From Alphaproteobacteria bacterium (GTDB lineage: Bacteria; Pseudomonadota; Alphaproteobacteria; CAAHEQ01; UBA3637): a stretch of DNA of 64,000 nucleotides. Position 1 is the first letter of the stretch. Every line of letters starts with the position of its first letter. Positions 21,991-23,244 of the stretch are shown here, piece by piece. Under the pieces are notes generated by a model. The model had not been told where the DNA came from. It made no database searches and saw only the letters and a program-made list of their open reading frames with translations. The position numbers and the translations under genes are program-made. The stretch is taken from the NCBI GenBank assembly GCA_045611705.1, contig JAZKXR010000007.1:117262-181261 (forward strand), written 5' to 3'.

Positions 21991-23244
21991 ATGGTGAATA
22001 TAAAACTCAGAAGTTATGCTAATGGTAAGGAGGCTTTATTTGAAACGCCAGGGAAATTAGATATTCCTGAGTTTGAGAAAATGGGAAAAAAAGACACTGA
22101 AAATTGGAGTCGAACGCCAACGGTTAATTTATCGTCATGGAAAGTTTCGCATGATTTATCAAATTATGATATGCAGGATATAGATTTTGATACACTGACA
22201 CAATTTTCGGATGAAAAGTTTTGCCCGAACGGATGGGGCAAAAAAGACGAGATTTTAGAAATCGGAAAAGATCCGGGGCTTGGTATACGTTGTTTACATG
22301 AAAAAGGGATTGATGGGGCTGGTATGTCAATGGCGATTATTGATCAAGCCCTTTCGGATCATTTAGAATATCATGATAACTTAGTTCATTATGAAGAAAT
22401 TGGCTTTGAAAAAGCCCCCGAACGTGGTCAGATGCATGCTTCAGCGGTATCCAGCATTGCTGTTGGAAAAAATTGTGGTGTCGCACCAAAGGCAAAATTA
22501 TATTATTTTGCCACAAATACACGAAAAACCAAGGATGGGAAAGAAGTCAGAACAGCAGATTACAGGGTTCGGGCATTAGAGCGCATTTTAAAAATCAATG
22601 AAACTTTATCCGATAAAGAAAAAATACAAGTCGTTTCTGTTTCTGCAGGATGGATGGGGCAAGAAAATACGGAAAAATCAGAAGAATGGCGAAAAGTTTT
22701 GCAAAAGGCTAAAGAGGCTGGCCTGTTTGTTTTGACTACTGCTTCCAGAAAAGAATATGAATATGGATTAGGATTTTTAGGAATGGGCAAAAAAGTAAAC
22801 AGTGATCCAAATGATATTAATTCTTACTCCGAATGCCCATATAATTTGCCTGAATCTTTTATTTCGCAAAAAAATATATTTGTTCCAATGGATCATAGAA
22901 CAACAGCTTCACCAACAGGGAATAATGATTATTTTCATCTTTCAGATGGAGGTTTTAGTTGGGCAACGCCATGGTTGGCAGCTAATTTTCTCTTGGCTCG
23001 ACAGGTAAATCCAAAAATAACACCAGAGCATTTTTGGGATGTTGCTTTAAAGACGGGGGTATTTAGTGAAAAGGTACAAGGGACAGTTATTCAGCCATTA
23101 AAACTGATTGATACATTGCAAAAGGAAAGAGTTTGTTATAGTATGAAAAGTATAATGATTCAAGGGCAACAAAGGGCAAATGAAAAAGAAGAGAAACAAA
23201 AAAATATTTTAAAATTAACGAAAGGAAAGCAAAATGCAAAATGA
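21991..23244 (+). CDS. Subtilisin-like (S8) serine peptidase with no signal peptide
   Basis: 417 aa with a D-motif AIIDQA, an H region QMHASAVSSIAVG and an S-motif SDGGFSWATPWLAANFLLA (compare GTSMAAPHVAG). No hydrophobic N-terminus. Confidence 0.6.
   Translation: MVNIKLRSYANGKEALFETPGKLDIPEFEKMGKKDTENWSRTPTVNLSSWKVSHDLSNYDMQDIDFDTLTQFSDEKFCPNGWGKKDEILEIGKDPGLGIRCLHEKGIDGAGMSMAIIDQALSDHLEYHDNLVHYEEIGFEKAPERGQMHASAVSSIAVGKNCGVAPKAKLYYFATNTRKTKDGKEVRTADYRVRALERILKINETLSDKEKIQVVSVSAGWMGQENTEKSEEWRKVLQKAKEAGLFVLTTASRKEYEYGLGFLGMGKKVNSDPNDINSYSECPYNLPESFISQKNIFVPMDHRTTASPTGNNDYFHLSDGGFSWATPWLAANFLLARQVNPKITPEHFWDVALKTGVFSEKVQGTVIQPLKLIDTLQKERVCYSMKSIMIQGQQRANEKEEKQKNILKLTKGKQNAK

Follow-up and report, generated by a model that had tools for sequence, protein, structure and literature searches.

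The 64,000-nt stretch of DNA analysed here (contig JAZKXR010000007.1, hereafter the window), which comes from an uncultured alphaproteobacterium of the gut, carries, between ybgC and tolQ, an open reading frame (ORF) for a serine peptidase of family S8. Our results firmly support the view that its product, the S8 protein, is a genuine, deep-branching subtilase with an intact Asp/His/Ser triad, and it apparently is catalytically competent, as far as its residues allow activity to be predicted. Its family is largely exported, whereas the S8 protein has no export signal. We favour, tentatively and with a little less than even confidence, a reading in which it works as an active protease in the reducing cytosol of the cell that produces it, co-expressed with TolQRA. 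The gene and its catalytic codons, placed by the phmmer and hhalign alignments described below, are as follows.

21991..23244 (+): S8 subtilase gene; ORF with ATG start, 417 aa
22342..22344 (+): codon GAT of catalytic Asp118; Asp in 132/134 aligned family members
22435..22437 (+): codon CAT of catalytic His149; His in 134/134
22957..22959 (+): codon AGT of catalytic Ser323; Ser in 133/133

Results

A subtilase with an intact triad and an unusual oxyanion site

The Pfam model PF00082 (Peptidase_S8) matches the S8 protein with 30.5 bits, above the gathering threshold of 21.8. The match is limited to residues 110-247, corresponding to profile positions 2-147 of 288, the N-terminal half of the model, and none of the NCBIfam models matches. 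A first-pass annotation of this DNA had called the gene an S8 subtilase with recognisable Asp, His and Ser motifs, which are located at residues 115-120 (AIIDQA), 149-159 (HASAVSSIAVG) and 321-336 (GFSWATPWLAANFLLA). In a phmmer comparison with PDB sequences, the matches to savinase were marginal (E ~0.3), and they placed D118, H149 and S323 on D32, H64 and S221. The same three pairs were obtained with hhalign, when a profile of 62 family members was aligned with subtilisin BPN' at a probability of 96.6%, with the core beginning at residue 100. The annotation had allowed that the motifs might not align to S8 catalytic residues; the two alignments agree that all three do. An AlphaFold2 model built from the family alignment reached a predicted local distance difference test score (pLDDT) of 93.9 and a predicted template modelling score (pTM) of 0.91, and its fold matches were exclusively subtilases, with the subtilisin alpha/beta fold. 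Solved structures share 13-20% identity with the S8 protein and none of them forms a closest branch.

The protein differs from subtilases such as BPN' and savinase in having no conserved canonical oxyanion Asn. The BPN' residue N155 falls on R253, in a stretch where the hhalign alignment is weak, and this column is variable, with Asn in 3/134 members. It also differs from them in its family-specific invariants R303 and W324, in a ~90-aa N-terminal extension that is not of the I9 type and in a basic C-terminal helix of ~40 aa. R303, which lies in PMDHRTTASP (residues 299-308), is invariant in 133/133 family members and might serve catalysis or substrate binding in a family lacking the canonical oxyanion Asn. 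Two members without a signal, P0015 and P0016, have Glu instead of the catalytic Asp (AIIESTRL; alignment columns 145-150), and may represent a sub-clade with changed or lost activity.

A signal-less branch of an exported family

Among 5.8 billion proteins searched, 718 proved to be relatives of the S8 protein, most of them ~400 aa long, with Sec or lipoprotein signals and often in tandem copies. Their hosts include Clostridia (Clostridium omnivorum, Fusibacter, Tissierella and Alkaliphilus peptidifermentans), Anaerolineales, Planctomycetota, Verrucomicrobiota and others, and some of the signal-bearing homologue loci are labelled Candidatus Enterousia. The exported relatives would fit nutrient-scavenging exo-enzymes of proteolytic anaerobes. 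From a scan of 185,579 species-representative genomes, 80 family loci were kept. The family alignment and tree comprise 134 members, of which 95 have a hydrophobic N-terminus, in many cases with a lipobox, and 39 do not, a few of these 39 being fragments.

The closest relatives of the S8 protein are unnamed exported peptidases of its own subfamily, lipoproteins annotated as 'S8 family serine peptidase', which are 37-49% identical to it across the extension and the catalytic domain and have the same invariant residues. The sequence comparison firmly supports descent of the S8 protein from an exported family of Sec/lipoprotein peptidases. Exported members of the subfamily have a Sec/lipoprotein signal, end straight after the last core helix and often stand in tandem, whereas none of this holds for the window protein. 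The exported alphaproteobacterial copies also have an invariant Cys pair, which is missing from the window protein, itself located in the tol operon.

Within residues 1-45 of the S8 protein, the highest 10-residue Kyte-Doolittle mean is 0.22, compared with values above 2 in exported relatives, and the most hydrophobic 19-residue stretch anywhere in the protein reaches 0.70. No twin-arginine (RR) motif was found in the first 40 residues, and the protein has no lipobox. The low hydropathy and the lack of a Sec, twin-arginine (Tat) or lipoprotein signal agree with the annotation, which had described the protein as free of a signal peptide. A signal peptide on an alternative upstream start, which would have overturned that description, is ruled out, because ybgC is in the same frame as S8 and its stop codon (TAA at 21985-21987, with AAA and the S8 ATG next) lies 3 nt upstream and allows no earlier start. 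Since only TAA AAA parts the two genes, a single stop read-through would fuse both proteins; the in-frame layout is probably coincidental, because in relatives the genes overlap out of frame. From the absent signals, we infer a cytosolic location for the S8 protein.

Two regions outside the subtilisin core distinguish the protein.

21991..22287 (+): N-terminal extension, residues 1 to ~99; precedes the subtilisin core; pLDDT 73-97
23125..23241 (+): basic C-terminal tail, residues 379-417; 10 K+R against 4 D+E

The start of the N-terminal extension corresponds to the mature N-terminus of exported relatives (MVNIKLRSYANGK versus ...ISKLAPYANYS). The ~90 residues before the core are conserved family-wide, with T70 and P79 invariant and L56 and D67 in at least 90% of members, and they include a hydrophobic-Pro element whose P26 is invariant across 32 signal-less members. 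No I9 pro-domain was matched by Pfam in the S8 protein. The statement of the annotation that there is no pro-domain holds, then, for the classical I9 type, but it had overlooked this conserved extension.

Signal-less forms are nearly confined to a gut/rumen alphaproteobacterial branch. In a rough neighbour-joining tree, all of the signal-less members, apart from fragments and L025, L071 and L082, fall in the alphaproteobacterial half, where they make up several sub-clades, and several signal-less S8 paralogues occur per genome. The C-terminal tail has a median length of 30 aa and a net charge of +6 in signal-less members (n=39), versus 1 aa and 0 in signal-bearing ones (n=95), and this association of the tail with signal loss recurs over several signal-less sub-clades. 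In the signal-less clades, the tail is a basic helix of 17-60 aa, and clades B and C share a conserved sequence motif within it. In the AlphaFold2 model of the S8 protein, the tail belongs to a single long helix (residues 369-416). The positive charge of the tail was considered alone as a secretion signature and rejected, given that the last 25 residues carry a charge of at least +5 in 18% of window proteins, which belong to a Lys-rich proteome. The C-terminal KGKQNAK was likewise rejected as a protein motif, because it is the Shine-Dalgarno element and ATG of tolQ read in the S8 frame.

The positions of query F297 and G364 are occupied by Cys in 100% of signal-bearing alphaproteobacterial paralogues, as against 6% and 0%, respectively, in the query's clade. 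Cysteines at other positions are more numerous in the signal-less clades; C162, beside the catalytic His, is found in 76-89% of the two largest signal-less clades, A and B/C, and in 50% of clade D. Loss of the Cys pair together with new cysteines points to a shift from an oxidising to a reducing compartment, which may be the cytosol of the producing cell or that of a target cell. The alignment firmly supports the conclusion that signal and Cys pair were lost and that a C-terminal tail is present which exported relatives lack.

The S8 gene is embedded in a ruv-tol gene string

The genes around S8 form a string that runs from ruvA to a TolA-like gene.

18947-19522 (+): 191-aa Sec-signal protein (MKKIILMVLCLLCSVSSFA), no Pfam match; between ruvA and ruvB
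19532..20575 (+): ruvB (RuvB_N, 269.8 bits); upstream housekeeping gene of the same string
20579..21583 (+): APH/protein-kinase-like gene (PF01636, 48 bits); shares 4 nt with the start of ybgC
21580..21987 (+): ybgC, tol-pal-associated acyl-CoA thioesterase (Pfam 4HBT_2); stops 3 nt short of the S8 start
21980..21983 (+): AGGA, Shine-Dalgarno-like element for S8, within the last ybgC codons and 7 nt before the ATG
23221..23244 (+): dual-coding stretch; tolQ Shine-Dalgarno AAAGGAAAG (K-G-K of the S8 tail) and 11-nt overlap
23234..23929 (+): tolQ (TIGR02796, 244.8 bits, above the cut-off of 221)
23926..24351 (+): tolR (PF02472 ExbD, 102 bits)
24353..25249 (+): TolA-like protein, Pro/Lys-rich, no Pfam match; name inferred from position, composition and conservation in all relatives

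The ybgC product scores 118.8 bits with TIGR02799 (E 1.8e-34), below the curated cut-off of 141.35, and 86.7 with TIGR00051 (YbgC/FadM family), above 68.7. From ruvA to the TolA-like gene the string is compact: neighbouring genes either overlap, by 4-11 nt, or lie 3-9 nt apart. The S8 stop codon (23242-23244) overlaps the tolQ ATG (23234) by 11 nt; the ORF map thus confirms the placement between ybgC and tolQ, with the stop over the tolQ start, that the annotation had given. The dual-coding layout is also found in L001, L003, L004 and L015, and with an 8-nt overlap in L010. Since S8 starts 3 nt past ybgC and its last codons hold the ribosome-binding site and start of tolQ, S8 and tolQ would share a transcript and be coupled in translation. 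The string is most simply regarded as one predicted operon; promoter- and terminator-like sites in it are no commoner than chance, which is neutral for this interpretation.

The order ruvA-x-ruvB-(APH)-ybgC-S8-tolQ-tolR-tolA is kept in relatives in which the identity of the S8 protein has fallen to 67% (L001), 58% (L015), 54% (L010) and 50% (L003 and L004); across the same relatives, RuvB is 87-93% and TolQ 71-89% identical. This conserved layout firmly supports fixation of S8 in the string and its predicted translational coupling to tolQ. Among the 80 kept scan loci, S8 adjoins tolQ in four (L011, L012, L014 and L015, the last of which ends at a contig edge with ybgC out of view), and the remaining family members are not beside tolQ. 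The other tol-linked loci, L001-L006 and L010, are metagenome contigs from an exact-protein look-up.

Other genes come and go at the junctions of the string. The APH kinase is absent from L011 (99%), L012 (95%) and the displayed P0001 contigs L093-L096, and ruvB abuts ybgC in L093, L094 and L096, the P0001 contigs in which the junction is visible; in L001, a kinase of 59% identity occupies the same slot. A second S8 paralogue clade occupies the ruvB-ybgC junction in L006, where it stands alone, and in L010, where the copy after ybgC is present as well; in L003, an additional ORF of 103 aa separates ybgC from S8. Because the kinase, the paralogue and the 103-aa ORF are variable cargo, the ruvB/ybgC/tolQ junctions behave as variable cargo slots, to judge from the gene maps.

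Several further observations were made on the string. In L010 (2438-5386), the arrangement is ruvB-S8(P0019)-ybgC-S8(P0005)-tolQ, with two signal-less S8 paralogues in one operon. The APH kinase lacks a signal peptide, and its C-terminus is rich in Lys. The 191-aa signal-peptide gene is a further non-housekeeping insertion in the string: tblastn matches to its product are found in the same slot at 40-67% identity in L001-L004, L010 and L014 and at 91-97% in L011/L012, and L006 has an unmatched 135-aa ORF in the ruvA-ruvB slot. Neither tolB nor pal comes next after the TolA-like gene in the window, where a convergent hybrid histidine kinase/response regulator gene (25246-27381, minus strand) abuts it; in L006, a more distant relative, tolB follows tolA. 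Between strains, no other stretch diverges as much as the hybrid histidine kinase gene (61-85% nucleotide identity).

Paralogues at other sites and type IV secretion genes

Locus L013 is a contig of a metagenome-assembled genome (MAG) that carries a 99%-identical S8 protein, and in it a signal-less paralogue from the query's clade lies directly after dnaK-dnaJ. This dnaK-dnaJ-S8 layout is present in three contigs in all. About 1.5 kb from the L013 paralogue are genes for VirB10/TrbI (PF03743, 119 bits) and a VirB11-type ATPase (PF00437), components of a type IV secretion system (T4SS), and this association recurs in two other contigs. Within the MAG, the contig with the VirB10/VirB11 genes is a different one from that with the 99%-identical S8 gene, and the MAG is not the assembly of the window. 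Neither VirD4 nor the remaining T4SS parts were seen alongside them. In L013 (8790-13107, minus strand), the VirB11-type ATPase is followed by a very large VirB10/TrbI of 1101 aa with beta-flower repeats (PF21785 and PF21784); in L091 (7252-13374, minus strand), the gene in the VirB10 position, known by position alone, encodes at least 2040 aa and reaches the contig end. In both loci the VirB genes adjoin a dUTPase-like gene and an SH3 gene and run convergently to the S8 paralogue that follows dnaK-dnaJ. A third signal-less clade, like the signal-bearing paralogues, occupies unrelated sites, and a signal-less copy in L007 also has an unrelated context.

The S8 gene between strains and between species

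21940..23440: tract of high identity between strains (98.7-100% to L011, where the flanks average ~93%); covers S8 and the first ~200 nt of tolQ

When the window was compared with L011, S8 showed 7 differences in 1254 nt and the flanks 412 in 5961 (6.9%; binomial p = 1e-29), with a synonymous divergence (dS) of 0.008 for S8 and 0.21-0.41 for flanking genes. The excess conservation of S8 is also observed, in less extreme form, against L012 and between L011 and L012, so that between strains S8 is the most conserved DNA of the ruv-tol region. Between species, divergence is faster in the S8 protein than in its neighbours (46-67% identity versus 87-93% for RuvB). The ratio of nonsynonymous to synonymous divergence (dN/dS) against L012 is 0.20 for S8 and 0.03-0.09 for the flanks, and the substitution pattern firmly supports purifying selection on S8. 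The simplest reading of the tract is that diverged strains have recently exchanged the S8 allele by homologous recombination; a gene-specific sweep is the alternative. A chimeric metagenome assembly is possible as its source, but the pattern appears in three independent assemblies. The S8 protein occurs in identical form on 10 contigs, which stem from several samples. Horizontal acquisition was rejected on compositional grounds, as the G+C content of the S8 region (0.377) matches the surroundings.

Discussion

On the reading that we tentatively prefer, the family ancestor would have been exported, and one group of gut/rumen Alphaproteobacteria would have lost the signal peptide and the Cys pair and now carries a basic C-terminal helix. 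The S8 protein would be made and folded in the bacterium's own reducing cytosol, where it most likely acts as a protease that degrades proteins and peptides or serves quality control, in an organism that probably relies on scavenged amino acids. It would be fixed as an accessory gene in the ruvAB-ybgC-tolQRA string. Its link with Tol is most likely one of expression, a constitutive 'cargo slot', rather than that of a mechanistic Tol-Pal part. The signal-less paralogue linked to dnaKJ fits a role in cytosolic proteostasis. Members of the order Rs-D84, including Candidatus Enterousia, have reduced genomes and are unable to make amino acids (PMC12306168), and the amino-acid auxotrophy of these related gut Alphaproteobacteria fits a role in proteolysis and amino-acid supply; Rs-D84 serves here as context, as a related order to which the window may or may not belong.

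Several points weigh against this reading. The location of the S8 protein is judged solely from missing signals, and an unregulated cytosolic endoprotease would harm the cell; neither an inhibitor nor a LIPY/F pro-peptide of the kind found in Bacillus intracellular subtilisins (ISPs) is present for the S8 protein. The activity may be low or unusual, given the variable oxyanion position (R253; Asn in 3/134). The loss of a signal and the gain of a tail are more naturally seen as a swap of targeting signal, and T4SS genes are encoded in the 99%-identical MAG. Fast divergence between species and recent allele exchange are seen more often in interaction proteins than in housekeeping enzymes. Finally, gene order kept within one lineage may be plain inheritance, which is no proof of a functional link.

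ISPs are a known class (PMC6220982), so the description of an intracellular S8 protease as atypical in the first-pass annotation was too broad, while a signal-less clade in an otherwise exported family is indeed atypical. In ISPs, a short N-terminal LIPY/F pro-peptide blocks the active site (PMC6220982). The S8 protein resembles ISPs (PDB 2X8J and 7XR8) in having no leader, in its presumed cytosolic location and in an N-terminal extension that replaces the classical pro-domain, and in both the C-terminus may contribute to oligomerisation. It differs from them in that its extension is ~90 residues long and has no LIPY/F, only LDIPEF with the invariant P26, and it shows no specific relationship to ISPs in sequence or structure. 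The S8 protein is not a Bacillus-type ISP.

The strongest alternative, which we regard as possible though doubtful, is that the S8 protein is a translocated effector in which the Sec signal was replaced by a basic C-terminal signal, so that it is exported, for example by a VirB-type T4SS, into a partner or host cell and there degrades proteins for nutrition or manipulation. Positively charged C-termini are reportedly the VirB/D4 signal, an observation attributed to Vergunst et al. in 2005. Like substrates of VirB/D4 systems, the S8 protein has no N-terminal signal, has a basic C-terminal tail and comes from a genome that, or a near-identical version of which, encodes T4SS genes, and its fast evolution and multi-copy pattern also fit. 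The effector reading draws on the contrast in the tail between signal-less and signal-bearing members (30 aa and +6 versus 1 aa and 0) across several sub-clades, on the VirB10/VirB11 genes that recur near a signal-less paralogue (1.5 kb away in the 99%-identical MAG), and on the presence of multiple signal-less paralogues per genome. Fast divergence between species, a recent exchange or sweep within the group and the dN/dS of 0.20 against 0.03-0.09 in the flanks point in the same direction. The extra cysteines at non-conserved positions would also suit the cytosol of a target cell, and gut Alphaproteobacteria of the Rs-D84 type have been proposed to be partner-dependent (PMC12306168). The effector reading explains the coupling of signal and tail, the T4SS genes, the expansion of paralogues and the swept pattern better than the cytosolic one does.

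Other observations count against export of this kind. A charge of at least +5 in 18% of window proteins makes the tail not distinctive, and its last 7 residues are constrained by the ribosome-binding site and start codon of tolQ. The tail is Lys-rich instead of Arg-rich and is modelled as a helix. The tail is unlike that of VirB/D4 substrates in being Lys-rich, helical and partly dual-coded with the tolQ start, with a charge usual for the proteome. The motif shared by the tails of clades B and C speaks for a specific protein interface rather than a loose signal of charge. No VirD4 coupling protein was seen near the VirB genes, the T4SS could serve conjugation, and the S8 gene is housed in a housekeeping operon. 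A fuller version of this idea, that an exported family was re-targeted as VirB-T4SS protease effectors, expressed constitutively through ruv-tol and dnaKJ operons and with alleles spread by recombination, appears unlikely to us.

It is improbable that the S8 protein acts on or with TolQRA or YbgC on the cytoplasmic side of the inner membrane, for instance in the turnover or processing of TolQ, TolR or TolA, with the basic helix docking it to the membrane or to TolQ. Adjacency and predicted translational coupling to tolQ are conserved in at least six lineages, a second paralogue occurs in the same cluster in L006 and L010, and a basic amphipathic helix might bind acidic phospholipids. Such a function is hard to reconcile with signal-less paralogues of the same architecture elsewhere (L013, after dnaKJ, and L007), with junctions that act as general cargo slots, taking an unrelated kinase between ruvB and ybgC and a 103-aa ORF in L003, and with the fact that just 4 of the 80 kept species-representative loci adjoin tolQ. 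A Tol-Pal component would be present wherever Tol-Pal is, whereas S8 is found beside tolQ in few gut alphaproteobacterial loci. In the library searched, no paper was found that names subtilisin along with Tol-Pal and ybgC.

We consider it more improbable still that the S8 protein is an inactive pseudo-protease or the decaying remnant of an exported paralogue. The absence of the canonical oxyanion Asn, the Glu of P0015 and P0016 in place of the catalytic Asp and a dN/dS above that of the flanking genes could be taken in this sense. However, the triad is kept in >98% of the family, exported members included, so that the lack of the Asn characterises the family as a whole and does not indicate decay; all relatives have an intact ORF, the dN/dS of 0.20 is far under 1, the identical protein occurs on 10 contigs from several samples, and the fold is predicted with high confidence.

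A leader peptidase for ribosomally synthesised and post-translationally modified peptides (RiPPs) such as lantibiotics, or an anti-phage protease module, both of them suggested in the first-pass annotation, is very improbable: the PADLOC 'subtilase' model PDLC03014 gives a weak, generic and partial match (17.2 bits, E 7e-4) around the His only, no precursor-peptide, RiPP-modification, transporter or defence genes were found near S8, whose neighbours are ruvB, the APH kinase, ybgC and tolQRA, the packing leaves no space for a small ORF, and the gene context is the same in all relatives.

The S8 gene in the tol string is a real lineage-specific oddity, and for the specialist no major surprise. 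It brings together cargo slots at operon junctions and what is most simply a gene-specific exchange of S8 alleles between strains. Whichever reading holds, it belongs to a large S8 branch that has neither a solved structure nor an NCBIfam model, and in which an Arg is invariant and no oxyanion Asn is obvious. If the protein is cytosolic, as we tentatively favour, it would represent an independent Gram-negative origin of intracellular subtilisins, with an architecture unlike that of Bacillus ISPs, and would raise the question of how an endoprotease is restrained within the cell. If it is translocated, it would be a clear case of an N-terminal signal swapped for a C-terminal one, and would give a first insight into the means by which gut Alphaproteobacteria that are uncultured, and perhaps dependent on partner cells, attack these cells or feed on them.

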